Numbered from the stretch's first letter, positions 2,388 through 44,240 are shown. The stretch: DNA of 64,000 nucleotides from an uncultured Flavobacterium sp. (GCA_964543545.1 CAZIYT010000007.1:20023-84022); one strand, 5' to 3'. Translations and numbers: made by a program. The notes: generated by a model not told the origin, from the letters alone.

Positions 2388-2615
2388 AAATCTCAAAGTG
2401 TAAATATAATATAATTAATGTGGTTTATGAAAAGCGCCAAGACTTGGGGATTATTTTCCTCTTCCTGTTAATTTAGGTTAAGCCCTAAGCTTATTTGGCA
2501 TGGTTTTTACCTTGCCTCCTGTCAAAATAAATTAGTTTTGATCATGAAATAGCCATTTCCCTGTGTTGTGCAATCTTATGAAGATGAACTGGCCGGATCA
2601 TTAAAAATAATAACT

Positions 2616-3023
2616 ATGAAAGTTTTAATCGCCATCGCTTTTATCCTGCTCGGTTTGGCAGGCTATAGCCAGGATACGATTCCGAAGCCTGTAAAAACAA
2701 CCGGTGTTGCCAGCTTTTACGCCTCGAAGTTCAACGGCCGTAAAACCTGCTCCGGACAGAAATTCAGCAATGATAGCCTGACGGCCGCCCATAAAAGCCT
2801 GAAATTAGGGACTTACGTGCAGGTAAGAAACCTCAAAAACGACTCTACCGTTGTGGTGAGGATCAACGACCGCTTGCCGAAGTCATCGAAGCGAAGCATC
2901 GATCTCAGCCAGCGGGCAGCCAAACAGCTCAATTTTATGAGGGCCGGCCTCGCCAAAGTGGAAATAACGGTACTGGACAGCCCGGATCCTAAGCCTGTCA
3001 GCAAGGACACCGCAAAAAAATAA
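2616..3023 (+). CDS. rlpA: Septal ring lytic transglycosylase RlpA-family protein (double-psi beta-barrel)
   Basis: GVASFYASKFNGRKTCSGQKFSNDSLTAAHKSLKLGTYVQVRNLKNDSTVVVRINDRLP. Start set at the ATG preceding signal peptide MKVLIAIAFILLGLAG. Confidence 0.85.
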   Translation: MKVLIAIAFILLGLAGYSQDTIPKPVKTTGVASFYASKFNGRKTCSGQKFSNDSLTAAHKSLKLGTYVQVRNLKNDSTVVVRINDRLPKSSKRSIDLSQRAAKQLNFMRAGLAKVEITVLDSPDPKPVSKDTAKK

Positions 3024-3158
3024 AAGTCATCACTGCTTTGCCATAAGCAAGGAATTTTGCTTCGGCTCCCGGCCTTGCCAAATCATCGTTTTATTGAAAT
3101 AATTAGTAATTTGCAGCGTAAAATTACCTGTGTATCAACGCAGGCCTAACGTATTGCT

Positions 3159-4496
3159 ATGCCAACACTTCTTATAAAAAATGCCACGCTTATCAACGAA
3201 GACGAATCCTTTGTATCGGATGTACTGATCGAAGGCAATCTCATTACTCAAATAGACAGGGACATCATGCACGACACCGCCAAGGTAATAGATGCCGAAG
3301 GCTTACTGCTCATTCCGGGTGCTATCGATGACCAGGTCCATTTCCGGGAGCCGGGCCTCACGCATAAAGGTGAGATCTATACAGAGGCGAAAGCTGCCGT
3401 AGCCGGTGGTGTCACCTCCTTCATGGAAATGCCCAATACCAACCCGCAGACGGTGACGCTGACGGAGCTCGAAAAAAAGTACGACCGCGCCAAAGCCTGT
3501 TCGCTGGCCAATTATTCGTTTTACATGGGAGGCACCAACGTCAACCTCGAAGAGACGCTGAAAGTGGATTACAGCACTGTATGCGGCCTCAAATTGTTTA
3601 TGGGCTCCAGCACCGGCGATATGCTGGTGGATAATGAGAAAACCCTGGAGGGATTTTTCTCCAAGGCCAATACGCTCATTGCCACACACTGCGAGTACGA
3701 CCCGATGATCAAAGAAACGCAGGCCCGGATCGTGGAAGAATACGGTGAGGACCTGCCGGCTTATTTCCACCCGGTGATCCGCAGTGAGGAGGCCTGTTTC
3801 CGGTCCTCTTCCTTTGCCGTAAACCTCGCTAAAAAATACGATACGCGCCTGCATATCCTGCATATTTCTACTGCTAAAGAGCTGGACCTTTTTACGAATA
3901 AGATCCCTCTGAAGAAAAAACGCATTACAGCCGAAGCCTGCATTCACCATTTATGGTTCAATGAGGACGATTACAATAAAAAAGGCAATTTCATTAAATG
4001 GAATCCGGCCGTGAAAACGGAGTACGACCGCGCTCATATTTTTGAAGCGGTGCTCGACGGCAGGATCGATGTAATAGCCACTGACCACGCACCGCACACC
4101 CTCGAAGAGAAACAGCTGCCTTATCTGAAAGCCCCGAGCGGCGGGCCTTTGGTGCAACACTCGGTGCTGGCCATGCTTGAGTTTTATAAGCAGGGCAAGA
4201 TCAGCCTGGAGAAGATCGTGCGCATGATGTCGCATAACGTGGCCGACATTTTTCAAGTGGAGAAACGCGGCTATATCCGCGAGGGCTATTTTGCCGATCT
4301 TGTGCTGGTAGACCTCCACAAATCCACACCGGTTACCAAAGAATCGCTCCTATACAAATGCGGCTGGAGCCCCTTTGAAGGCACAACGTTTTCTTCCAGC
4401 ATCAGTAAAACGATCGTGAGCGGCCACCTGGTGTACGATGACGGAGCTTTTGACGAAAGCGTGAAAGGACAGCGCCTTCAATTTAAACGTTCATGA
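3159..4496 (+). CDS. pyrC: Dihydroorotase (amidohydrolase superfamily)
   Basis: 445 aa. DDQVHFREPGLTHKGEI...GGVTSFMEMPNTNP...ATDHAPH motifs of cyclic amidohydrolases/dihydroorotase. Confidence 0.85.
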   Translation: MPTLLIKNATLINEDESFVSDVLIEGNLITQIDRDIMHDTAKVIDAEGLLLIPGAIDDQVHFREPGLTHKGEIYTEAKAAVAGGVTSFMEMPNTNPQTVTLTELEKKYDRAKACSLANYSFYMGGTNVNLEETLKVDYSTVCGLKLFMGSSTGDMLVDNEKTLEGFFSKANTLIATHCEYDPMIKETQARIVEEYGEDLPAYFHPVIRSEEACFRSSSFAVNLAKKYDTRLHILHISTAKELDLFTNKIPLKKKRITAEACIHHLWFNEDDYNKKGNFIKWNPAVKTEYDRAHIFEAVLDGRIDVIATDHAPHTLEEKQLPYLKAPSGGPLVQHSVLAMLEFYKQGKISLEKIVRMMSHNVADIFQVEKRGYIREGYFADLVLVDLHKSTPVTKESLLYKCGWSPFEGTTFSSSISKTIVSGHLVYDDGAFDESVKGQRLQFKRS

Positions 4497-4657
4497 TAAG
4501 GGCTTAGGTATGAATTGATTAACTCGTTTTAGTACGAAATATTACGTAATATTCCGCAGAAAAAAATTAACCTGGACCTGTTTACAACCTGTTTTGATTG
4601 TGCACCATTTTACTTTTCAGGTGCGGTATTTTTGGGGTTAATAAAAACCATTATCAA

Positions 4658-29505: not shown

Positions 29506-29621
29506 CCTGTAGAAGCCCTTCTACAGTGGGCTTACAAGCGGCTTTCATTTTTTATTAGGATATATCCCGTAAATAATTCTACCTTTGGACCCTCAAGTTC
29601 TTTTTTTATTTCTTCATTCAA

Positions 29622-29796
29622 CCGGAAAAGGTTTTACTTAGCTGTAGATTAATAGGGAATCGTGTGAGAATCACGAACTGTCGCGCAACTGTAAGTAACA
29701 CAAAAAAGTTTTACCGCTTAGATCCACTGTCACGATGCGTCGTGACGGGAAGGATGGTAAAATGTTACAAGTCAGGAGACCTGCCTCTTTCGAATT
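29622..29796 (+). promoter_or_regulatory. Cobalamin (B12) riboswitch
   Basis: AATAGGGAATCGTGTGAGAATCACGAACTGTCGCGCAACTGTAAG (29651-), CCACTG (29724-29729), GGGAAGG, and a B12-box-like AGTCAGGAGACCTGCC (29770-29785) occur in the canonical order. Confidence 0.85.
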
Positions 29797-29987
29797 GACA
29801 AATGCTTTCGCGAATAAAGTTTTTTGGTCGGGTAGGGTGTATACCGCTTTCTGTGATTTCAGGGGGTGTATATATTTTTTCTTTTCCTCCATTTTATTTC
29901 ACAAAGCATAGCGAAGTTCCGCAAAAAGAGCTTTAAAGAATCCTGTATTCCTTTAAACGCTATTGATGCCACACAACAACTTCTGCT

Positions 29988-30491: not shown

Positions 30492-30516
30492 TGAAAACAA
30501 TAGAGTGCGTATTCGT

Positions 30517-30629
30517 GCGCCAGGGATTGAAGCGGAAATCCTTTTGCGGGTTCCAGGCCTCACAGCGATAAACGGGAGACCGCTTACCCGCAAAAGATTG
30601 AAGCGAAAAGCCCGCTTGGGCGCCCAAAA
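30517..30629 (+). repeat. Family-1 unit (forward orientation)
   Basis: GCGCCAGGGATTGAAGCGGAAATCCTTTTGC...GCAAAAGATTGAAGCGAAAAGCCCGCTTGGGCGCCCAAAA. Confidence 0.75.
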
Positions 30630-32778: not shown

Positions 32779-33639
32779 ATGAAAGCTACTCTACCTAAGC
32801 CGACGGGCTTCGTTCTTCTCTTTGCCGTTTTCCTGCTTGCCGGCTGTGCCTCAAAAACAGCCTTGCAGGGCAAAGTGGTGATCGCACAACAGAAATTACC
32901 TTACCTGGCCCATCAAAAAATTCACCTGGAAAGAAATCATAAAAAAGCCTACACCACGGAAATCGACGACTTCGGCTTTTTTGAGTTCACAGGAGTAAAG
33001 CGCCATAAAACCTATTCCATAGAATTCGATTCTCTTTCCAAAAAGCTGGAAGGCAGCGTGTTTTACATCGCCAATATGAATGGGAAAAAAATAAAGGAGA
33101 TCGATCTGCGGAAAGGCTTCGAGTTCAGGCTGCTCCCGCTGGAGTTTAATGAGCTGGCCTTCCTGGAGGACGATGACCTCGACGAGAAAATCAAGGAATT
33201 TAAAAGAGGTACGGTAGGCGAGGAGCTGCTGGTTCGAAAATACATCCATTACGAAACGGGCGCCTACGGAATCTCGAGGGAGAACCGGAAATACATGAAT
33301 GCCATTGCAGGCGTATTGAAAGACAATAAGCAGTTTATCCTCAGGGTCAACTCGCATGCCGATGCCAAGGGCAACGACGACTTTAACCAGGCTCTCTCGG
33401 TGAAGCGCGCCAACGAGATCAAGAACTACCTCGTGAAAAAAGGCATTGCCGCCGACCGTATCGTTACCTATGGTTACGGCGAGAGCCGCCCGCTAAACAA
33501 TTGCACCAACGGCGTGGCCTGCAGCGAACTGCAGCATAAGCAAAACCGCCGGACGGAGTTTGTGTTTAAAGCTGTAAAAGCCTCTGATATTTCCCTCGGG
33601 GAAAATGAAAGGCGTTCGCGGTCCAGGCTTAAAAACTAA
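32779..33639 (+). CDS. OmpA-family lipoprotein
   Basis: LLAGC lipobox. C-terminal LRVNSHADAKGNDDFNQALSVKRANEIKNYLVKKGIAADRIVTYGYGESRPL...NRRTEFVF. Confidence 0.8.
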   Translation: MKATLPKPTGFVLLFAVFLLAGCASKTALQGKVVIAQQKLPYLAHQKIHLERNHKKAYTTEIDDFGFFEFTGVKRHKTYSIEFDSLSKKLEGSVFYIANMNGKKIKEIDLRKGFEFRLLPLEFNELAFLEDDDLDEKIKEFKRGTVGEELLVRKYIHYETGAYGISRENRKYMNAIAGVLKDNKQFILRVNSHADAKGNDDFNQALSVKRANEIKNYLVKKGIAADRIVTYGYGESRPLNNCTNGVACSELQHKQNRRTEFVFKAVKASDISLGENERRSRSRLKN

Positions 33640-33906
33640 GTTGATTTTTCCCCTCCGGTAAATCATCTGATAAATCCTTTACAGTCGCGCGGTTTCATGA
33701 CGGGGCTATCTAAGCAAATTGGGCGTTAAAAATCATGTATTGGAACTGTTTTTAGATGAGTTCAGGCAGTATTTTCATGTTTGATTGCTGTTTATGATTC
33801 CTGCAATTCAGTCCGTGAAGCACCTGTAAATACAGGTCTTCTCAAATTAGCTTGGCTTTCTTGCTTAACGTTGCTACATTTGCGCGCTAAAATCAAAACT
33901 GTAGTT

Positions 33907-35436
33907 ATGAAAACTTCCCTGTTTATGATCGGTATGCTGTTTTTGCATCTGGTCTGCCAATCACAAGACCTGATCGAGCGATCAGGTTCCGAGCTTAACA
34001 AAGACGATACGCCTTATTTCTCTTCCTATATAGGTAACGACGGGGATTATTTCTACACACTCCGGATCGACAAGAACATCGGGGGCTTATATAAAGGAAA
34101 TTACAGTGTAGACCAGATTGAGAAGTCGAGCCTCAATTATGTGAAGCGCATTGCGACCACGTCGGGTGATACCAGGACGGATCAAGAGCCCTCTGCTTTA
34201 ATGATGGGAAGTAACATTTACCTGTTTGTGAAATTTCAGAACAAGTCGGCAAAAACATGCGACTATGTGATGGATGTCATCAGCACAGACAGTCCTGGAA
34301 AACCTGCCGAAAGGCGTGTACTGGCCTCTTTTCCAACGGACGAAAGCCTGTGGTACCAGACCACTTTTTATCACATCCTCAGCCCCGACTCTTCCAAGAT
34401 AGGTGTGATCGCCAGGTTTAAAACAGAGCTGACGTACTATGTATACAATGCCAGTGATTTCAAAGAGCTGAGCAGGAAAAAACTGGCAAGCGCCAAAGAT
34501 AAATCTGAGACCACGAATTATAAAATAGATAATGCCGGAAACCTGTTTTACAGCCGGGTCGATCCGAAATTTTTCTCGGTAAGCGAAGTACCTGTAGACA
34601 ATGGCGCTGTGCTCACCTGTACATTTAAGCGCACACAGTACATGAAAAGCATTGACTATTCCTTTGATCCGAAACAGGGGCAGATCTATGTGTATGCCAT
34701 GTATTACGAGGCCAATAAAAAACCAAAAGAGGAAAACTACAGCAGCATCGGTTTTTTTGTGGCTAAAATAGATAAAAAGACGATGAAGGCTGCCGGTGAA
34801 AAGTATTATCCTTTTGAAGCCCTTATCCTGGATAAAATAGCCTGTGGCCAGCTGGACAAAGGATTTGTGTTTCGGGCCTACAACACCGATGTGTTATTCA
34901 CAGACAATTCGGAGCTTCTGTTGGTGATGGAGCAGGTTGCCGGCGGTTCGGTGCAAAGAGGCACGAATCCCAACTCATCTATGGATATGAGCAGTAAAAT
35001 ATACTACGAGGCCAATGAAATTGTAGTTGCCGGTATCAATCAGAACCTGGGTTTAACGTGGATGAAATTCGTTCCCCGCAATACTACCTATACCAACATT
35101 ACCAATAAAACGGAGAGCACCATTGCCTGTACACGTCTGTTCGACGGTAAAAAGCTGAAGTATTGTTTTATAGAGCATCCTAAGATCGAGGATAAGCTAC
35201 TGGATTATTCCAGCATCAATTTTTGCGAAATACCGCTTGCCAAAACCTATCCGGGAACCAATGTGGTGGAGTATACCATTAGTTCTAACGGAAGCATGGA
35301 CAAGCGCCTCCTGTTTACCAACAAAAAAGAATGGCTGATCCCCGAGCTATACGATGCCGGCTTAGGAAACGGGCAGCGCCTGGTAAGGTTCAGGAAAGGG
35401 GACAAGGAATATTTTAAGGTCATCAATCTCCGCTAG
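33907..35436 (+). CDS. Hypothetical secreted protein
   Basis: Start at MKTSLFMIGMLFLHLVCQSQ, with a TACATTTG box 24 nt upstream. No recognisable domain. Confidence 0.55.
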   Translation: MKTSLFMIGMLFLHLVCQSQDLIERSGSELNKDDTPYFSSYIGNDGDYFYTLRIDKNIGGLYKGNYSVDQIEKSSLNYVKRIATTSGDTRTDQEPSALMMGSNIYLFVKFQNKSAKTCDYVMDVISTDSPGKPAERRVLASFPTDESLWYQTTFYHILSPDSSKIGVIARFKTELTYYVYNASDFKELSRKKLASAKDKSETTNYKIDNAGNLFYSRVDPKFFSVSEVPVDNGAVLTCTFKRTQYMKSIDYSFDPKQGQIYVYAMYYEANKKPKEENYSSIGFFVAKIDKKTMKAAGEKYYPFEALILDKIACGQLDKGFVFRAYNTDVLFTDNSELLLVMEQVAGGSVQRGTNPNSSMDMSSKIYYEANEIVVAGINQNLGLTWMKFVPRNTTYTNITNKTESTIACTRLFDGKKLKYCFIEHPKIEDKLLDYSSINFCEIPLAKTYPGTNVVEYTISSNGSMDKRLLFTNKKEWLIPELYDAGLGNGQRLVRFRKGDKEYFKVINLR

Positions 35437-35509
35437 GCCCGGCTGTGTCTGATCAATCAACATTGACGTTTGTCAATAGATTAATCGTTGCACTGGCGCA
35501 ATCAAACAT

Positions 35510-35548
35510 AAAAAATCCCCTCACGATGTTCTGTGAGGGGATTTTTTA
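35510..35548. terminator. Bidirectional terminator between convergent genes
   Basis: A-run, ATCCCCTCAC/GTGAGGGGAT stem, T-run. Confidence 0.8.
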
Positions 35549-35572
35549 TGGAGAGAGCACCTTAAGAGAAGC

Positions 35573-36166
35573 TTACACCACATGCACCAGGTGCGGGTCG
35601 GAGTAGGGCTGTTCCTCGTCGTGCAGGATAGCCTTTACCCGGAACCAGTATTTGATGCCCGGGCTGAGGCCGTTGATATGCGTACTGGTGGTATTGCTTA
35701 CTTTGAATTGTTTCCAGTCGGTAGCCACAGATATATCGGTGGTCATTTCCCACACGTAGGCTGCATGGTTTCCGGCATAAGGGCAGATGAGGTCTACGCT
35801 GCCCGAGGTGCTTCCCTGTATGGCGTCAAAGATCTTGGGCTTTGCGTTTCTGCTTTGCCTGAGCATAAAGCCGCTGCTGAGGGCTTTTTCCTCATCATCG
35901 CCGCATTCCAGCTCCACGTGTCCTTTGAGGGCGATCAATACCTTTTCGAGGTAGATCACGCGTTTTTGAATGGTGGTGCTGTTGGGCTGGGCAGCGGTGA
36001 GAGCCGTGTGCAGGTCGCTGATACCCGTGCCGAGCGATGCCAGGTAAGTGGCTGCACCGGGAAAATTGGTGTTATTGGTGAGTGCCATGAAAATACTGTT
36101 GGCATACAGTTCCGTCCCGCTTGGGTCGAGGCCCTTAAGGTTAAGGGCCAGCTTAATCCGTTTCAT
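35573..36166 (-). CDS. Hypothetical protein with C-terminal fibronectin type III-like domain
   Basis: ...YVWEMTTDISVATDWKQFKVSNTTSTHINGLSPGIKYWFRVKAI... Start set at MKRIKLALNL. Confidence 0.5.
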   Translation of the reverse strand: MKRIKLALNLKGLDPSGTELYANSIFMALTNNTNFPGAATYLASLGTGISDLHTALTAAQPNSTTIQKRVIYLEKVLIALKGHVELECGDDEEKALSSGFMLRQSRNAKPKIFDAIQGSTSGSVDLICPYAGNHAAYVWEMTTDISVATDWKQFKVSNTTSTHINGLSPGIKYWFRVKAILHDEEQPYSDPHLVHVV

Positions 36167-36444
36167 AACGAATATTTTTAATTGTTTATAATTGTTTTTT
36201 GAAACTCGAAGCCTCTGCTGAGTAATCAAGTGAGAGGCTGGGGGAGAAACTTGAAAGCGTAGCTCTTTCGTTTATGATAGAAACGCTCTGATGCGGTGTT
36301 CTGACTTTATAACGCAAGGTTTGTTCCGCTATTACAGCGCTTAACAATTTTAACGGAGGGACTTTATAAATGGCGCTTTTTAAACCATAAGTGGCCGTTG
36401 ATTTGTGAAAATTCCTTAAGCAGAAAAACGGCGGCCGGCGATAA

Positions 36445-36750
36445 TTTCCGGCAGCTCCGCGACGTTTCCTTAGGCCGTGGGAAACAAGCAGCGGCGGCCG
36501 GATGTTTCGCGCAGCACTCAAACGTGTGATGCCGCGGCAGGAAAAGATCCATGGTCAATCGGAAACTTCTGTACGCCGTGCGAAACATCCGGCCGCGGCG
36601 GGAAGAGTGATGCCGCATCGCGAAATAACAGGTGGCGGCCCGAAAGATCCTGCGGCCTCCGGAAGCTGCGGGAAGCGGCAGGAAACGATGCAGGGCGCGG
36701 GTAAATTTCCGGTGGCGGGAAGAACGCTCAGATCGCGGGGTGAAGATCCT
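36445..36750. repeat. Degenerate ~100-bp tandem repeat in a GC-rich non-coding stretch
   Basis: GCCGTG[GC]GAAACA at 36474 and 36575. AAGATCC at 36544, 36644 and 36743. GTGATGCCGC at 36526 and 36607. Confidence 0.5.
36494..36596. other. Long hairpin: 17-bp perfect inverted repeat GCGGCCGGATGTTTCGC / GCGAAACATCCGGCCGC
   Basis: Arms at 36494-36510 and 36580-36596, checked base by base. Confidence 0.7.
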
Positions 36751-37186
36751 AAAGACGCCTGCGCAACATTGAGCGAATGATTCGTCCCCTTTAGTAAAGG
36801 CATCGCATTCATTGAAAAGCAATGATGATATTTGCCGTATGGCACGATCCCACAAATACAAGCCCTTTTTTGCTTGCTGCTCAGGCAGCGAAAAAGAGGA
36901 TAAGCGCATGGCGAACCGTGATTTCCGCCGTAAGGCAAAGATACGTGCCAGAATTGGCAGCGGCGAATTTCTCCTGATGCGTGAAGTATCCAATACCTGG
37001 GCTTTTGCCAAAGACGGCAAATGGTATTGGAGGAATGCCGGGAAGAAAGAAATGAGGAAGTGAGAAAAGTGTTCTCAGAGATCGGCCTGCATGGGAGGTG
37101 AATATTTCGTTGGTTGTTAAGATACTTAAAGATAGGGGGAAGTGCTGGTGTTTGGAGAAAGGTATTAATACGGGAGTTAACAAAAA

Positions 37187-37286
37187 GAAGCAGCTCGTCC
37201 CTACTGCTTCCGTGTTTTACTTTCATTGTATCTGAAAAGTAAAACTTATGCTTGTGTGTGGTTGGTTCAATTTAGACGAAGCATAA
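37187..37286 (-). ncRNA. Candidate structured ncRNA or terminator cluster directly 3' of the second RT gene (three consecutive stem-loops)
   Basis: GAAGCAG/CTGCTTC (37187-37210), GTTTTACTTT/AAAGTAAAAC (37214-37245, 10 bp perfect) and TTATGCTT/AAGCATAA (37246-37286). The cluster ends 4 nt from the RT stop codon. Confidence 0.3.
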
Positions 37287-37290
37287 TATT

Positions 37291-39348
37291 TTAATAAACT
37301 TCCTGACTGTGTTTAGCATCGAGCTCTCTTCCGAAGTCAAAATCTGCCCATTTGGTAAACCAGCACTTTCTGTAATTTATTATTTTTAATTGCAAATTAA
37401 CATCAATGACGGCATGTAAAGATAGAATTTCTTTTTTAAAATCAAGATCAAGATAGGGGCAAGTTAACAAATCAAAAAGTAAAAAAATTAATTCTGCAGA
37501 CTTCCCTCTGTTTTTTTCCCCCGCCTCGTTAAATCTCTTTTTTATATGTACTAGAAGAAAATTCCTTAAAGTAAAGTATCTAACTTTGTTTTTCATATAG
37601 AAAAGCAAAACAACTATTGAGAAATAGTTTAAGGAACCATTGAAATATAAATCGCCGGCGTCATTTTTTTCGATGCACATATATTGTCTTAATGCTTCAC
37701 TATCAAGCCAGTATTCTTTTCCTAGCTCCCCCATAGCGATCAACAAATATAGTGTCTCCACTTGAGCATGTTCAACAGATTTATTTTTTTGAATTATAAA
37801 ATATAGATTATCATATATCTTTTTGAAGACTAAATGTTTAAAATCAATATTTATCAAATTGTTGGAATTTAAAAATTCCGTTAGTCTTCTTAATATTCTG
37901 CACAATTTTATTGTTGTATTAACTCTTGGGGAAACTGAATAAAGAAAAAAAGTGAAATCCAGAATTTCTAAACAGGCTTTTGTAAATGCTTTCTCTGACT
38001 TATTATCAAGGGTAAATTCTTGGTAATTTTTGATGATTTTTTTGAATTTTCGCTCAATCAAAGTCAACGAATAATTTAGCACATCCTTGTATTCGATAGA
38101 TGTCTCTTTAATAATGGTTTTAAATTTTGTAATCAATCTATTAGAACTCACGTATATTGAGCCAAATTTTTCATTTTCAGATTCTAAATCCTTTTCATTT
38201 TCAAGCTCACTTTTGTTATCCTCTATTTTATAAGCTAGATGCTTATTTAATAAATCAGTAATTTTTTGTTTTGCTATTGTTATTTCCGTGATAATTGGTT
38301 TCTCATAAATTACTGTTTTCTCGTCATTTAAATACAGTTTATATTCTCTTAGCTGTAATCGGAAGTTTTTTAGAATTAAATCTTTCGTTCGTTCATCATT
38401 ATAGAATACAAAAAAATCATCTACGTATCTAAAAATCTCATAGTCTACTTTATGCTTAAGATTCTCCTGATCTCTTAATATGAATTCAATATTTCTGTCA
38501 ATTTTTTGTAGTATAACCTCTGCAAATAATCTGGAAAATTCGGGGCCAATTATAATGCCGTTTGTTTCGCCAAAATTCAAATCTTGCATTAAAGAATCAA
38601 ACTTTCCTCCAAATGTTCCTTTAGAAAGGGGGATATTCTCTTTAATAATTTCTTTATTAAATAATGCCCATGATATTGAATGCGAATAAATACTGTCGAA
38701 ACATTTAGAAATATCAAACTTCAATAGTTTGTTATACTTTTTCTCACACCGATGATATTTATAGGATTCATAAAATTTATGAATATTGCTGTAATTTTTA
38801 TATACAAAAAATGTCTTTAAGCTTTCATATTCTTTATTTTCTTCTTCAAGAATACCATCCGAATTCTCAGCAAGATTCTCTTTATGAGTTTTATCTTTAT
38901 GAAATATAAATTTTGCAATCTTTTCTGCTCTTCTAATTGAGAAAGGACTTAGTTTACAATGATGTAAAATTAGTTGTTTGTTGTTTTCATAAAATTCCAC
39001 TAAAGCAAGTTGGTTTTTTGGATGAATAACGGTTAGCTGCCTAAAGTCATTCTGTTTATGGGAAATTTTATAGTTAAAAGGGATAGTTTTCAATCCTTTA
39101 CCCTTATCTAATATCGAGTGGTTTGAAATAATTGGGCCAGGAATATCAAAAATAAGTCGTATTATCTCATTTAATGTTGGATCGCTTACTTCCCAATTAA
39201 TTGTGTGGTTTTTTAATTCTATTTTATTCTTAGTCAAGAAATCATAAAAGTGTCGATTAGAATATGTAACAGGTATCTCATAAGGTAGTACATCTGACAG
39301 TATTACTCTTTCCTTTTTATATTTTATAACTCGTTTATTCTTCTTCAT
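37291..39348 (-). CDS. Reverse transcriptase with long helical C-terminal extension; second gene of the two-RT module (Drt3b/UG8-like by architecture)
   Basis: 685 aa. KFDISKCFDSIYSH (motif A), GIIIGPEFSRLFAEVILQKID (motif B), IFRYVDDFFVFY (motif C, YVDD), LNDEKTVIYE (motif D), then ~330 aa helical. Very AT-rich. Confidence 0.85.
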   Translation of the reverse strand: MKKNKRVIKYKKERVILSDVLPYEIPVTYSNRHFYDFLTKNKIELKNHTINWEVSDPTLNEIIRLIFDIPGPIISNHSILDKGKGLKTIPFNYKISHKQNDFRQLTVIHPKNQLALVEFYENNKQLILHHCKLSPFSIRRAEKIAKFIFHKDKTHKENLAENSDGILEEENKEYESLKTFFVYKNYSNIHKFYESYKYHRCEKKYNKLLKFDISKCFDSIYSHSISWALFNKEIIKENIPLSKGTFGGKFDSLMQDLNFGETNGIIIGPEFSRLFAEVILQKIDRNIEFILRDQENLKHKVDYEIFRYVDDFFVFYNDERTKDLILKNFRLQLREYKLYLNDEKTVIYEKPIITEITIAKQKITDLLNKHLAYKIEDNKSELENEKDLESENEKFGSIYVSSNRLITKFKTIIKETSIEYKDVLNYSLTLIERKFKKIIKNYQEFTLDNKSEKAFTKACLEILDFTFFLYSVSPRVNTTIKLCRILRRLTEFLNSNNLINIDFKHLVFKKIYDNLYFIIQKNKSVEHAQVETLYLLIAMGELGKEYWLDSEALRQYMCIEKNDAGDLYFNGSLNYFSIVVLLFYMKNKVRYFTLRNFLLVHIKKRFNEAGEKNRGKSAELIFLLFDLLTCPYLDLDFKKEILSLHAVIDVNLQLKIINYRKCWFTKWADFDFGRELDAKHSQEVY

Positions 39349-39352
39349 ACAA

Positions 39353-40690
39353 CTATTTCCAGATTTCTATAATTTGTGATAGCTCATTGGTTGTAAAGGG
39401 TGAAAATCTTTTCTCACTAAATCCGTCTTTAAATTTGTATCTAGATAATCGCGTAATTAATTGTGGTTTAGTAATTTTTGATGAAATTTTATAGGCTAAA
39501 TAGCTATCTAATCCAATTAAATCTGAGACATCTGTCAATAAACTGTTAGAATAAAAAACTCCTACAAGAATATTTCTTTTGTTATTCAATAATCTAGTGT
39601 TACCGGTTAAAAATTTAAGTCTTTTTATTAAAATTTTTCGAGCATTTTTTTCATCGATTATAGCATGAGTTAAATAAGAACTAAGAGTTAAGTCAATTCT
39701 CTTTTTATACCTATTAATTTTTTTTGTGGTAAGCTTTAATTTAATAGGGTTACTGCCAAATTCAATTTTATATCCTAAATATTCTATAGTTACAGAAGAT
39801 GAAGATACAGTATGATCGATTTCAATAGTTTTATGAGAATTAAGAGGCAGGAAATGCTTTGTAGTCACAACATCTTTTATTTGATCTAAATATTTTTTAT
39901 CCTCAGTAATAGTATCTGGAGTAAAGATTATAATAATATCATCGACATAGCGTGCATAATAAGTGACATTTGGTAAAGATTTAATATGATTATCAATATC
40001 TCGCATATATAGCTCAGCCAAATATGCGCTTACACCTATACCTCTTGGAACTCCCTTATCTGTGCCTGATAATTGTTTATATGTATTAAGTATTTGTGAT
40101 ATAAGCCTTTTTGAATAAAAGGTTAATAGATTTTCTTCGTTTAATTTTTTAAGTAAATTGTTATGAGGTATGTTCTCGTAAAATTCTTCTATGTCTGTCC
40201 TGATAATATATTTAGGGAAATTATCTGCAAGTAATCCTTTTACTTGACTGACTATTGAAAATCTACTCGACTGCTTAACTTTATAAAGCTTTCTGAAATT
40301 GTATTGTATCTGCTTTAATGAAAAGAAATTTTCTGGTTTATCCTCGATAATGTAGACTGGCTTATCTAATAGTGTGTCGTTACGATTTAAGGAAATTCTA
40401 AATTTATCATTAACAACAATCTTACTTATTGTTTGCAGTTCCTCCTGTAGTTGTTGTTCCTTAACTTCTTTTAATTCGTTAATCTTGACATTGAGTTTTT
40501 TTCTTAAATCATCAAAAGCCTCATGGGATAACATTTTTTTACCTATCCTAATCTCTAAATTATGACGCTTAATTTGTTCTGTTATGCTTATTAAATTTGC
40601 AAAAAAGCGTCCCTCAAGGTAAATACCTTTTCTATTTTCATAATCTAATATGCGTCTAAAATTTTCAGTAGAGAAAGATTGATCTAACAT
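39353..40690 (-). CDS. Reverse transcriptase; first gene of the two-RT module (Drt3a/UG3-like by architecture)
   Basis: 445 aa. IIRTDIEEFYENIPH (motif A), GVPRGIGVSAYLAELYMRDID (motif B), YYARYVDDIIIIF (motif C, YVDD), LNSHKTIEI, IEYLGYKIEF. Its stop is 4 nt from the next start. Confidence 0.85.
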   Translation of the reverse strand: MLDQSFSTENFRRILDYENRKGIYLEGRFFANLISITEQIKRHNLEIRIGKKMLSHEAFDDLRKKLNVKINELKEVKEQQLQEELQTISKIVVNDKFRISLNRNDTLLDKPVYIIEDKPENFFSLKQIQYNFRKLYKVKQSSRFSIVSQVKGLLADNFPKYIIRTDIEEFYENIPHNNLLKKLNEENLLTFYSKRLISQILNTYKQLSGTDKGVPRGIGVSAYLAELYMRDIDNHIKSLPNVTYYARYVDDIIIIFTPDTITEDKKYLDQIKDVVTTKHFLPLNSHKTIEIDHTVSSSSVTIEYLGYKIEFGSNPIKLKLTTKKINRYKKRIDLTLSSYLTHAIIDEKNARKILIKRLKFLTGNTRLLNNKRNILVGVFYSNSLLTDVSDLIGLDSYLAYKISSKITKPQLITRLSRYKFKDGFSEKRFSPFTTNELSQIIEIWK

Positions 40691-40712
40691 TAGTATGATT
40701 TTCTATTTTTAT

Positions 40713-40720
40713 TAAATGTA
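40713..40720 (-). promoter_or_regulatory. Bacteroidota-type -7 box (TACATTTA) for the RT operon
   Basis: Near-consensus TAnnTTTG, 22 nt upstream of the ATG at 40690. Confidence 0.35.
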
Positions 40721-40735
40721 CATAATATCCCAAAA

Positions 40736-40764
40736 TAAAAAAGGGCGGTTTACCGCCCTTTTTA
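40736..40764. other. GC-rich hairpin with an A-run and a T-run (terminator-shaped) between divergent genes
   Basis: AAAAAAGGGCGG-TTTA-CCGCCCTTTTT. It lies between the RT operon start and the DUF3892 gene start, so it terminates neither. Confidence 0.6.
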
Positions 40765-40780
40765 TGTTGTGGCTATTCTC

Positions 40781-40788
40781 TACATTTG
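40781..40788 (+). promoter_or_regulatory. Bacteroidota-type -7 box (TACATTTG) for the DUF3892 gene
   Basis: Exact TAnnTTTG, 15 nt upstream of the ATG at 40804. Confidence 0.4.
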
Positions 40789-40803
40789 AATAAAAAATAA
40801 TTT

Positions 40804-41115
40804 ATGACGAAATGGGCAGATTACTTAATCTCAGAAGTGCAGTATGTTGAAACGGCTACAACAAAACACATTTCAAAAGTTAAGGTTCATACTGATTTAG
40901 GTGAATCGGTCGGTGGCAGTGTAACATGGTCTCGAGAAGACGTTGTGAATGCAATAGACTTAAACTCTACATTCATGACAATATTTAAAGGCGTGAATGG
41001 AAGCTTTAATAAAGGAGCTAAAGTCGAGAAGATTAAAATCAATAATGAGTGGTTTATTACAACAGAACCTGATAAAACAAAAAAAGATAATCTTGGTAAT
41101 TTACCGGAGTTTTAA
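40804..41115 (+). CDS. DUF3892-like small protein
   Basis: 103 aa. ADYLISEVQY...VKVH... and C-terminal TTEPDKTKKDNLGNLPEF resemble DUF3892. Identified from memory and not searched. Confidence 0.5.
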   Translation: MTKWADYLISEVQYVETATTKHISKVKVHTDLGESVGGSVTWSREDVVNAIDLNSTFMTIFKGVNGSFNKGAKVEKIKINNEWFITTEPDKTKKDNLGNLPEF

Positions 41116-41162
41116 CCTATGAGTGTTATTAATAATATGTCTTTCTAAAACAAATATATAGT

Positions 41163-41360
41163 ATGGCGCATACAATTAAATTGACAATGACTGTTCCTGA
41201 AATTAGTAAAATAGATACGTGTTATGAGATCAAACATAATGGTAGAAAGTTAGGAACTCTCAAAATATCCAAAGGGGGTATCGAATACTTACCTAAAGGG
41301 AATTCCAAAAACTCTATTAAAAAAACTTGGTTGCAATTTGATACTTTAATGTATGAATAG
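41163..41360 (+). CDS. Hypothetical 65-aa protein, co-oriented with the DUF3892 gene inside the AT-rich island
   Basis: MAHTIKLTMTVPEISKIDTCYEIKHNGRKLGTLKISKGGIEYLPKGNSKNSIKKTWLQFDTLMYE. AT-rich like the island. Confidence 0.45.
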   Translation: MAHTIKLTMTVPEISKIDTCYEIKHNGRKLGTLKISKGGIEYLPKGNSKNSIKKTWLQFDTLMYE

Positions 41361-41404
41361 TTTTCATTAAATACCCCACCCCGCAGTATTATAATCCAAC
41401 AGCA

Positions 41405-41719
41405 TCACCCCCGCTTCCTCCGATTTACCTCATTCCTATCGTAAAAATCCGGTTCTTTCTTCCGTACCCAAGCAATAAAGGTTTGCATATCGGGGTGGGC
41501 GCATACGGTGTTGGGGTCGTTGAATTCTTTTTCCAGCTCCTTTTCCGTCCAGATGGAGTGGATCTTCCGGTGGCAGATGCGGTGCAGGTATTCGCTGGCT
41601 TTGCCGCCGCGGCTTTTGGGAATGAAATGGTGCCGGTCGATGCTGTCGCCTTTCCATAGCTCACGCCCGCAGATGGGGCAGAGGCCTACCACAATGGGTT
41701 CGTTGGTTTCGCGCGGCAT
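41405..41719 (-). CDS. Small stand-alone HNH endonuclease
   Basis: CPICGRELWKGDSIDRHHFIPKSRGGKASEYLHRICHRKIH. Host-like G+C. Confidence 0.8.
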   Translation of the reverse strand: MPRETNEPIVVGLCPICGRELWKGDSIDRHHFIPKSRGGKASEYLHRICHRKIHSIWTEKELEKEFNDPNTVCAHPDMQTFIAWVRKKEPDFYDRNEVNRRKRG

Positions 41720-41864
41720 GATTATAAATTTACAAAAAACAGGCTTATCTTTTTTATTTCCGATACTTTTGAAGCCAAATTATCCAAAAGCTTTCATCTA
41801 CATAGATATAAACTTAAAAAAAGCAAAGGTGAATCACTTAATTTTAAATCCAAACACAGTAGAT

Positions 41865-42240
41865 GCAGCGCGTGGGCCGGGCAAAACGCGGCGCCAGGGA
41901 GGTGTGAATTTCAATTTTTATAGATTTGTCCGAAAAACCTTTAGTGTTTTTCGGCTAACAAATCATAAAAATTGAAAGAGCGCGTAGGGATCGTTTTGCC
42001 TTGATTTTTTTGTTTCTTTTTTCATCAAGGAAAAAAGAAATAGAGAAAATGAAAAAATAGAAAGGATGCTTTTTGCCTTGAGCCAACCCACATGCTGGCT
42101 CAAACATGCACTGCATGTTTACCCTGTTTCTTTTTTCATCAAGGAAAAAAGAATAAAGGAAGAATGAATTCGTTTTGCCTTGAGCTTCCCGCATGCTGGC
42201 CTACTTCCGGAGCCCTTGGCTCCGCTCAGTCACCGGTATA
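41865..42240. repeat. Patchwork of intergenic repeat modules and hairpins
   Basis: GTTTTGCCTTGA three times. TTTCTTTTTTCATCAAGGAAAAAAGAA twice. 12-bp inverted repeat TTTCAATTTTTA/TAAAAATTGAAA around hairpin CCGAAAAAC/GTTTTTCGG. GCGCCAGGGA and GCTCAGTCACC modules are shared with other loci. Confidence 0.6.
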
Positions 42241-42248
42241 GAAAAATA

Positions 42249-42827
42249 TCACTTCCTCCTCACATACTCCAGCTCCCCGCAATGAATCCTCAGGCGGCGC
42301 AGCAGCTCTTTGTTCTTTTCGGCAAGCTCGCCCTTCTCTGCCATCTCCGGTTTCTTAAAACTCCTGAGCTCCGCCTTCACGATCACCGTGTCGTGGAAAT
42401 AGTAGCGGTTATCGTCATCCGTCTCCATGGGCCAGCCACTCAGGTCGGTCACTCCGCTGGTATCCGTATGCTCCTTGCGGTAAGTCTCGAAGCGCTCGTA
42501 GTCCTCACCGGTCGAGAGCTTCCAGAAGGCCTGTACCTCCTGCACCATCAGCAGGCTGTCGTGGCGCAGGTAGTAGTGGTAGCTGCGGTAGCCGTGCTCC
42601 GCGCCATAAACGGTGCGGATGAGCACCAGCTCCAGGCCAGCGTAATAGCCCGTTACGGCGCCGCCGGGTGCCGACATATAATCCAGGCTTTTCGCGCTCA
42701 GCTCCCGGTGTTGCAGTTGAGCGTCGACCTGTTTTGCGTAGCGGTCGGCGGCCTCAGGCTTGCCTTTCTTCTGGCTGTATGCCAGGAGGGAGAGCAGGAG
42801 GCAGCCGGAAAAGATCAGGTATTTCAT
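42249..42827 (-). CDS. Hypothetical lipoprotein or secreted protein
   Basis: MKYLIFSGCLLLSLLAYSQ signal. 3 nt downstream of the preceding gene. Confidence 0.5.
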   Translation of the reverse strand: MKYLIFSGCLLLSLLAYSQKKGKPEAADRYAKQVDAQLQHRELSAKSLDYMSAPGGAVTGYYAGLELVLIRTVYGAEHGYRSYHYYLRHDSLLMVQEVQAFWKLSTGEDYERFETYRKEHTDTSGVTDLSGWPMETDDDNRYYFHDTVIVKAELRSFKKPEMAEKGELAEKNKELLRRLRIHCGELEYVRRK

Positions 42828-43987: not shown

Positions 43988-44240
43988 TTTTGGGCGCCCT
44001 GGCGGGCCATCGGGGCTCGCTCTTTCCTTGCCCTGCGGGACAAGCAAAGGAGCTCAAACAAACCCCTCTGTCCCTGGCGCACGATTCTCTCTTTCATAGG
44101 ACGCTAAACTCTTTGATGGAACGTAAAATGCGCCAGGGATCGCAGCGGAAATCCTTTTGCCCATGTTGAATCTATCTGTTGTACAAGCGTAATCCACTAT
44201 GGCAAAAGATTGGAGCATAGAGCCCGCCCGGGCGCCCAAA
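43988..44240. repeat. Family-1 composite element (reverse unit 43988-44080 plus forward unit 44130-44240)
   Basis: TTTTGGGCGCCCTGGCGGGCC...TCCCTGGCGC, then GCGCCAGGGATCGCAGCGGAAATCCTTTTGC...GCAAAAGATTGGAGCATAGAGCCCGCCCGGGCGCCCAAA. Confidence 0.8.

Follow-up and report, generated by a model that had tools for sequence, protein, structure and literature searches.

Two reverse transcriptase (RT) genes stand in tandem within an AT-rich island of a 64,000-nt stretch of DNA from an uncultured Flavobacterium sp. (GCA_964543545.1, CAZIYT010000007.1:20023-84022; hereafter the window, which supplies all coordinates below), and the question is what kind of system they form and whether it could work. A previous reading of the window, made from the sequence alone (the original prediction), took the pair for a module resembling DRT type 3 (DRT3), an anti-phage system. 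Our analysis leads to the same family: the locus is, with high confidence, a complete and apparently functional DRT3 anti-phage system that consists of drt3a, drt3b and a downstream non-coding RNA (ncRNA), carried on a horizontally acquired AT-rich cassette in a chromosomal slot that relatives fill with other defence cargo.

Two reverse transcriptases of the DRT3 families

The genes drt3a and drt3b follow one another on the minus strand with a gap of 4 nt (Table 1). The coordinates and lengths originally given for both open reading frames (ORFs) were verified, as was every motif quoted for them, and each encodes a full RT palm, with both proteins matching RVT_1 above the Pfam cut-off. Drt3a matches its NCBIfam equivalog model (NF041747) end to end, residues 1-444 covering model positions 1-412, with 387.6 bits against a cut-off of 200; Drt3b reaches 761.1 bits against a cut-off of 350 (NF041748). 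The cut-offs are exceeded 1.9-fold and 2.2-fold, respectively, and the bit scores of the next-best families are lower by a factor of 3.5 or more. PADLOC, one of the profile searches suggested with the original prediction, makes the same assignments, with E values of 2.4e-113 for Drt3a (second family UG17, 6.3e-32, 108.9 bits) and 1.1e-207 for Drt3b (runner-up Drt6, 9.4e-46, 154.7 bits; Drt4 scores 104.6 bits in NCBIfam). Considered as identities in their own right, Drt2, Drt4, Drt5, AbiA, AbiK, Abi-P2 and UG17 all score far below the Drt3 families and under their own cut-offs.

Proteins of known structure agree. Drt3a matches PDB chain 9z6y_A, 'Drt3a reverse transcriptase protein' (5.7e-28), and Drt3b matches 9z6y_H, 'Drt3b', over residues 2-683 (5.3e-71). 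Drt3b also matches 26cz_A, a SUMO-tagged RNA-directed DNA polymerase that we take to be EcoDRT3b (3.4e-94). The solved chains named Drt3a and Drt3b (9z6y/9z6z) are the best or near-best PDB matches for the window proteins, and we regard these matches as decisive for identity. The arrangement of a shorter RT followed by a longer one, on which the original prediction drew, is that of DRT3: drt3a lies immediately before drt3b in the window and in every related locus with enough flank. In RefSeq, automatic annotation already gives such pairs the name 'antiviral reverse transcriptase Drt3a/Drt3b', one of them on a Bacteroides plasmid.

Table 1 Features of the DRT3 locus and of its immediate surroundings
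Feature	Position	Strand	Description
Left anchor, small basic-protein host gene	36833..37063	+	73% identical over 77 aa to L081 gene, same position
DRT3 ncRNA	37181..37293	-	directly after drt3b; ~105-113 nt; alignment start set at drt3b stop codon, 5' end approximate
P3 GC-rich hairpin	37187..37210	-	followed by T-run 37186-37182; 8/8 pairs compensatory, 96% paired; from terminator scan
P2 hairpin	37214..37245	-	11/11 pairs compensatory, 87% of cells paired
P1 helix	37246..37286	-	5' strand 37286-37281, 3' strand 37251-37246; encloses pseudoknot strand, unstructured 14-nt linker and template
ACACAC template (5'-3')	37254..37259 (37259-37254)	-	in loop enclosed by P1, 31 nt past stop codon; for poly(dT-dG) synthesis
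Pseudoknot	P3 loop 37200-37195 (GGACGA) with 37279-37274 (UCGUCU)	-	96.3% paired, 4/6 pairs compensatory
Hairpin 5' of template in proteobacterial ncRNAs			GGCUGUUGGCAGCC
drt3b	37291..39348	-	UG8-type (class 1) protein-primed RT with helical (alpha-repeat) C-terminal half, 685 aa
Drt3b key residues	E24, R103, D212, F217, R273, Y308-V-D-D, C-terminal Y685
Equivalent of E. coli Drt3b E22	E24
Equivalent of E. coli Drt3b R71	R103
Equivalent of E. coli Drt3b D182	D212
Equivalent of E. coli Drt3b F187	F217
Equivalent of E. coli Drt3b R241	R273
Equivalent of E. coli Drt3b Y276-VDD	Y308-VDD
drt3a	39353..40690	-	UG3-type (class 2) RT, 445 aa; catalytic Y248-V-D-D and D166
Palindromic GC hairpin	40738..40763	.	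AAAAAGGGCGGT(AAA/TTT)ACCGCCCTTTTT; perfect, A/T runs on both sides, bidirectional-terminator-like
DUF3892 gene	40804..41115	+	103 aa; Pfam DUF3892 1.1e-08; phrog_32719 2e-32, function unknown
ORF65	41163..41360	+	65 aa; no family match in PADLOC, Pfam, NCBIfam or PHROGs; singleton cluster
Right anchor, HNH-like host gene	41405..41719	-	104 aa; Pfam HNH 2.6e-05; 20-member cluster at 90%; 87-88% identical in L078-L081, syntenic

Because a generic RVT_1 domain is present in both proteins, and both group II intron and retron RT models match weakly, a different retroelement (a group II intron, a retron or a diversity-generating retroelement) might have been misread as DRT3. The model for group II intron RT/maturase (TIGR04416) reaches 69.7 and 46.6 bits (the former for Drt3a) against a cut-off of 300, and that for retron St85 RT reaches 45.5 bits in Drt3a against 235, so neither protein falls into the clades that the original prediction had named as incompatible with it. 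Rfam finds no group II intron, retron msr/msd or other RNA family at the locus; the region 36000-42500 holds no template/variable repeat pair of a diversity-generating retroelement, its longest repeat families being of 22-29 nt and unrelated; and the RNA that flanks the RT genes is the DRT3 ncRNA described below. We consider this alternative effectively refuted.

Conservation of the residues that shape the product

The mechanism of DRT3 was solved in 2026 (Wang et al., bioRxiv 2026, PMC13174585; also Deng et al., Science 2026, as summarised in PMC13314766 and PMC13213688). Drt3a copies a conserved 5'-ACACAC-3' loop of an ncRNA encoded downstream of drt3b into poly(dT-dG), and Drt3b produces poly(dC-dA) without a nucleic-acid template, priming on Y666 of its 667 residues (PMC13174585). 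E22 and R241 of E. coli Drt3b enforce the alternation of nucleotides and R71 stacks on the incoming base; the two strands then anneal into duplex DNA, and the YVDD motifs of both RTs are needed for defence (PMC13174585). The duplex is held at a low level by RecBCD, and toxicity and abortive infection follow when lambda Gam acts or RecBCD is lost; read-through into 'stem-loop 4', adjacent to the template, truncates the products of E. coli DRT3 (PMC13174585). What makes the system striking is that one enzyme writes alternating DNA dictated by protein side chains.

Residue equivalents (Table 1) were taken from the alignment of window Drt3b to 26cz_A, with a tag offset of 108, and their conservation was read from a translated alignment of the window protein and 66 related loci (n = 67). 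E24, R103, D212, F217, R273, the YVDD motif and the terminal Tyr are invariant in all 67 proteins, except that the Val of YVDD (V309) is Val in 65. Window Drt3b ends in ...SQEVY, and the priming Tyr is therefore its last residue; across the 67 homologues this Tyr lies 0-1 residues from the end. Drt3a homologues (n = 66) all retain D166 and V-D-D, and the first position of the motif is Tyr in 42 and Phe in 24.

A structured template RNA downstream of drt3b

The ncRNA, the third component of DRT3, had been named in the original prediction and not located; we located it after drt3b. Directly past the stop codon of drt3b, the minus strand continues as ...CCAACC-ACACAC-AAGCAU..., followed by a GC-rich hairpin and a T-run, and the 126-nt stretch after drt3b folds better than each of 200 shuffles (z = -3.4) and leaves ACACAC unpaired in a loop. 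As the motif is not rare by itself (19 copies in the window against 13.4 expected), its weight rests on its position. It is found downstream of drt3b in all 72 related loci that keep the 3' end of the gene, mostly at +27 to +45 (+31 in the window). Visual inspection also placed it at +42 in the annotated DRT3 copy on an E. coli plasmid and at +49 in that on a Bacteroides finegoldii plasmid.

A covariance model (R1) was built from the window and its 11 closest relatives, 12 sequences in all. R1 has a single match in the 64-kb window, at 37181-37293 on the minus strand (111.1 bits, E = 1.4e-21), and one match immediately downstream of drt3b at each of 56 related loci, among them many proteobacterial ones outside the training set (E down to 7.5e-10). 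Structure statistics were computed on the alignment of these 57 sequences, with pairing partners slid by 1-3 columns and 500 shuffles as controls. The structure comprises three nested helices (P1, P2 and P3) and a six-pair pseudoknot in which the P3 loop pairs with the 5' part of the P1 loop. Over the 31 pairs, 92.6% of cells are paired, compared with 45-51% in the slid controls; none of the 500 shuffles reached the observed values, and 27 pairs show compensatory changes. P1 is paired in 94.3% of cells, with compensatory changes in four of its six pairs, and P3 resembles an intrinsic terminator, as a GC-rich hairpin followed by a T-run.

The pseudoknot is not encoded in R1, so the alignment was not fitted to it, and it occurs in clade-specific versions (CCGUC/GACGG, CCGCU/AGCGG and CCAGAU/AUCUGG; UCAGGC/GCCUGA in E. 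coli). We found no description of it in the DRT3 literature, with the structure paper of Deng et al. (Science 2026) outside the texts covered. Searches against Rfam, at gathering thresholds over the whole window and in E-value mode over 35.5-42.5 kb, returned no family that covers the DRT3 ncRNA.

With the RNA in place, every defining feature of DRT3 that can be tested in silico is present (the gene order, both protein families, YVDD in both RTs, the Drt3b residues, the priming Tyr, and the ncRNA with its published ACACAC template), and the sequence holds no signal that counters a DRT3 identity. The analysis establishes the identities of the genes, the conservation of the experimentally implicated residues and, for the template RNA, that it is present, where it lies and that its structure is conserved. 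The locus is an intact, ordinary copy of a system type that is already known, and it adds no new principle. Because the implicated residues and ACACAC are retained at ~40% identity to the E. coli enzymes, it supports the generality of the published mechanism.

Genes that look intact could nevertheless belong to a decaying or silent remnant, unexpressed or not working in this host. The cassette is compositionally foreign and may thus be silenced or recently arrived, and no convincing promoter was found for the drt3 operon. A scan for sigma-70 promoters gave nothing above shuffled expectation, with a consensus that is ill-suited to Bacteroidota. Promoters of the Bacteroidota type carry TTTG at -33 and TAnnTTTG at -7; by eye, the region upstream of drt3a offers only an imperfect, wrongly spaced match, and we therefore claim no promoter for drt3a. 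Set against this, both ORFs are full length relative to the curated models, the catalytic, templating and priming residues are all intact, and the window ncRNA keeps all of its helices and scores like those of its closest relatives. Visible disruption of drt3b occurs, by contrast, in two other loci. In L009 (6001-8050) the conserved C terminus is lost through an apparent frameshift, possibly a sequencing error, as this is a metagenome-assembled genome (MAG) from long reads; in L082, the E. coli IncY plasmid CP083496.1, drt3b (2501-4544) is annotated as two 'hypothetical protein' pieces and looks disrupted. We consider a remnant unlikely and retain the reading of a complete, apparently functional system.

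Proposed mechanism and points of caution

By homology to the E. coli system, Drt3a would bind the ncRNA and repeatedly copy its ACACAC loop into poly(dT-dG). Drt3b would prime on Y685 without a nucleic-acid template and add dC and dA in alternation, gated by E24 and R273, with R103 stacking. The complementary strands would then anneal into poly(GT/AC) duplex DNA, a product that is predicted for the window system from the conservation of the residues and of the template. Following the logic of E. coli, the duplex would be kept low by RecBCD and would accumulate when a phage inhibits RecBCD, as lambda Gam does, leading to growth arrest or abortive infection. The genomic context is supportive of a putative anti-phage phenotype, as the same slot carries an Nsn-like defence system in a related contig (L081). 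A further question posed by the locus is which nuclease takes the place of RecBCD as 'guard', and which phage triggers act, in a Bacteroidota host.

Several points weigh against this account of the locus. Each mechanistic step is transferred by analogy from E. coli homologues that are only ~40% identical, and the RecBCD/Gam trigger logic may not transfer to a Bacteroidota host. In the DRT3 loci of the two plasmids, from E. coli and Bacteroides finegoldii, R1 gave no significant match (E = 0.1-0.16), because the model was built from 12 close sequences; for these plasmid ncRNAs it is position, ACACAC and visual inspection that suggest homology. The window ncRNA also departs from most of its relatives next to the template. 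A hairpin of 4-7 bp that ends 1-2 nt 5' of ACACAC is present in 43 of the 57 ncRNAs, the E. coli-like ones included (Table 1 gives the proteobacterial form), and the window ncRNA and its nine closest relatives have an unstructured linker of 10-14 nt instead (14 nt in the window, with a minimum free energy of 0). The definition of the template boundary, or the length of the product, may therefore differ.

A compact ncRNA

The DRT3 literature that we found does not present the template-adjacent stem-loop as family-defining. We take its absence for a difference between subclasses and regard the compact ncRNA as a genuine, if modest, variant. The nearest relatives of the window Drt3b (L001-L011 and L064; 54-72% identity) come from Bacteroidota, Dehalococcoidia, Eubacteriales, Omnitrophota, Termititenax and Firestonebacteria, and their presence in such different phyla indicates wide horizontal spread of the subclade with the compact ncRNA. 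We tentatively raise the idea, which we hold to be rather less probable than its opposite, of a cross-phylum subclade (Bacteroidota, Chloroflexota, Omnitrophota, Margulisbacteria-like bacteria, Firestonebacteria and Clostridia) with a minimal ncRNA that has lost the stem-loop, and in which the template boundary would be set by the conserved pseudoknot or by protein. No natural DRT3 RNA would then be smaller, and reverse transcription would be restricted to six nucleotides by a different means. An ncRNA of ~105-113 nt could help to define the minimal RNA and how a template boundary is set.

Genes beside the cassette

Two small genes, encoding a DUF3892 protein and the 65-aa ORF65, occupy the rest of the island, and were originally taken as a possible sign of a variant or extended system. 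In such a four-gene system both proteins would act alongside the RTs, perhaps in sensing, as an effector or in regulation. They share the AT-richness of the cassette (G+C 0.32), lie within the same swap slot as the RT genes and, like the RTs, form singleton clusters found in this genome alone. Homologues of either gene are, however, missing from all 76 related DRT3 loci (~6 kb of flank), and an all-against-all comparison of flanking ORFs yielded only Drt3a and Drt3b as widely recurrent neighbour families; the other recurrent 'families' are shadow ORFs, as they lie inside the RT genes of GC-rich loci. At 26 metagenomic loci with DUF3892 relatives there is neither an RT nearby nor a homologue of ORF65, and the next gene varies. 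The small genes are moreover divergent from drt3a, with a strong palindromic hairpin in between, and published DRT3 requires just two RTs and an ncRNA. We give a four-gene system very little credence. Since the small genes are absent from the DRT3 loci and the DUF3892 relatives lack a neighbouring RT, the locus does not appear to be an extended system, and comparison of loci identifies the DUF3892 gene and ORF65 as co-resident cargo rather than parts of DRT3.

No relatives of the DUF3892 protein were found in viral contigs, and the GenBank phages yielded one unannotated 1.9-kb fragment. Compared with the small genes of L078-L081, neither the DUF3892 gene nor ORF65 showed homology; the best match, between ORF65 and L081, has an E value of 0.002 over 37 aa and lies outside the slot.

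The palindromic hairpin sits within the 113-nt gap between the divergent drt3a and DUF3892 genes and, from its sequence, probably insulates the drt3 operon. An identical 28-nt copy occurs at L078:10645-10672, between unrelated small genes in the variable slot of that contig, and the hairpin may be a shared terminator or a module-junction element. Sub-threshold Rfam matches near 40.7 kb (sraA and others) merely reflect this palindrome.

A different gene adjoins DRT3 in 13 of the 76 related loci, on the same strand. It encodes a DUF2779 protein of 430-674 aa (Pfam E values down to 1.6e-43) with weak Cas4-like (PD-(D/E)XK-type) matches, at L007:3150-4646, L008:6209-7681, L010:3201-4493 and L014:8349-10313, and in L015-L018, L020, L024, L026 and L075, with a short ORF fragment in L019. 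In L008 and the Flavobacteriia clade the gene immediately follows the ncRNA, in L007 and L010 it immediately precedes drt3a, and the window lacks it. Its product may be a clade-specific accessory nuclease, a candidate that deserves notice, as DRT3 products in E. coli are under the control of RecBCD.

A chromosomal slot for exchangeable defence cargo

The island differs in composition from its surroundings: G+C is 0.28 in the DRT3 cassette (37181-40690) against 0.47-0.49 in the conserved flanks and 0.46 in the whole window, and in 400-nt windows it stays at 0.25-0.33 between ~37.2 and 41.4 kb, compared with 0.41-0.61 on either side. The foreign composition first noted from sampled lines is thus real, although the contrast drawn there (22-23% against 52-62%) was somewhat exaggerated. 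Among ten related loci sampled, the DRT3 cassette is below its flanks in G+C in nine; in L003 the left flank is equal.

A survey of the neighbourhood in relatives, as had been proposed, showed that the flanks are shared with related metagenomic contigs at 82-90% DNA identity, and that other cargo replaces the island in L078-L081. Homology ends at 33571 and resumes at 41396-41403. The shared left flank holds a 4HBT gene, a gene for a Por_Secre_tail protein and an OmpA-family gene, and the shared right flank holds the HNH-like gene, three conserved genes and rplM-rpsI-rpsB-tsf. The Por_Secre_tail gene (type IX secretion system), two Flavo-1 RNA motifs and the rplM-rpsI-rpsB-tsf genes are consistent with the Bacteroidota chromosome recognized at the outset. 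Because the left anchor gene is conserved in L081, the swap slot proper spans ~37064-41395, essentially the island as first delimited (37187-41400), and the derived edges (37181, the end of the ncRNA T-run, and the point at which homology resumes on the right) are very close to those boundaries. The slot contains no integrase or transposase, and no convincing direct repeats were found at the boundaries of the island, in line with the original description; a search for inverted repeats there gave nothing convincing either.

In L081 the slot (L081:8316-12020) contains an NsnA-like gene (PADLOC, 2.4e-70) together with HEPN_RiboL-PSP and PLDc_2 genes. In L078-L080 (L078:8316-11500) it contains an uncharacterised set of genes for proteins of 423, 145, 108 and 65 aa, the largest with a weak match to PD-T4-10_B. 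When clustered at 90% identity, both RTs, the DUF3892 protein and ORF65 each form a singleton, found in one NCBI genome and its reads; the singleton RTs, as against the 20-member HNH-like cluster, and the low G+C of the cassette relative to its flanks support horizontal acquisition. The slot looks like a defence hotspot beside the rplM-rpsI-rpsB-tsf region, and the simplest inference is that cargo would be exchanged through recombination in the conserved flanks. The locus marks a chromosomal slot in which related genomes exchange defence systems.

Other features lie around the slot. Two genes at 33781-36229 do not occur at this position in L078 or L081 and have host-like G+C (0.47); one encodes a protein of 551 aa that begins like a signal peptide and matches no family, the other a protein of 218 aa with only a weak fn3 match. 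The adjoining 36230-36830 is GC-rich (up to 0.58), without a convincing gene and not conserved in L078 or L081, and carries a 25-nt inverted repeat (36491-36515 and 36575-36599, 88% complementary) as well as short direct repeats 141 nt apart. To the right of the HNH-like gene, 41990-42190 contains two identical direct copies of a 29-nt sequence (42011-42039 and 42125-42153), other repeats of 14-25 nt and an inverted repeat, and is partly conserved (78-80%) in L078 and L081. The Flavo-1 motifs (30514-30621 and 44127-44233, both on the plus strand; 56.5 and 47.8 bits), ~13.6 kb apart, bracket the variable region and are kept in L078 and L081. A cobalamin riboswitch lies at 29612-29802 on the plus strand (99.9 bits).

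Comparison with known systems

Among single-RT systems, AbiK, Abi-P2 and DRT4 (class 1 UG RTs) resemble the window Drt3b in joining an RT to alpha-repeats, in protein priming and in untemplated synthesis. Its next-best matches are indeed Drt6, Drt4, AbiP2 and AbiK, with scores 4-8 times below that of Drt3b; these systems differ in having no partner RT or ncRNA and in making random or other products (PMC13213688).

DRT10, which consists of a UG17 RT, an ncRNA and a SLATT protein, is the sister lineage of Drt3a, and UG17 is the second-best PADLOC family for the window Drt3a. It likewise uses a short loop template in a structured ncRNA to make tandem-repeat complementary DNA (PMC12632851). It differs in having one RT and a SLATT effector in place of a Drt3b partner, and it depends on a stem-loop just 5' of the template as a boundary (PMC12632851), whereas the window ncRNA has no such stem-loop.

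The closest relatives are the DRT3 systems of Algoriphagus boritolerans, Vicingus sp. and a Chitinophagaceae MAG (L001-L003). They lie in other genomic contexts, without DUF3892 or ORF65 genes; their Drt3b proteins are 70-72% and their Drt3a proteins 61-68% identical to those of the window, and they share the compact, hairpin-less ncRNA (113-116 bits with R1) and the identical ...SQEVY C terminus.

E. coli DRT3 (Gao et al. 2020; PMC13174585; PDB 9z6y/9z6z) is more distant: the window Drt3b is ~40-43% identical to its counterpart, the host belongs to Bacteroidota rather than Enterobacteriaceae, and the compact ncRNA lacks the hairpin that E. coli has just 5' of the template as 'stem-loop 4'. 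The two systems nevertheless agree in gene order and close spacing, in matching both equivalog models and in YVDD in both RTs. In both, Drt3b has a Glu and an Arg as nucleotide gates, an Arg for stacking and a priming Tyr at the C terminus, and an ncRNA lies directly after drt3b in which ACACAC occupies a loop closed by P1 and the loop of a downstream hairpin pairs with the 5' region.

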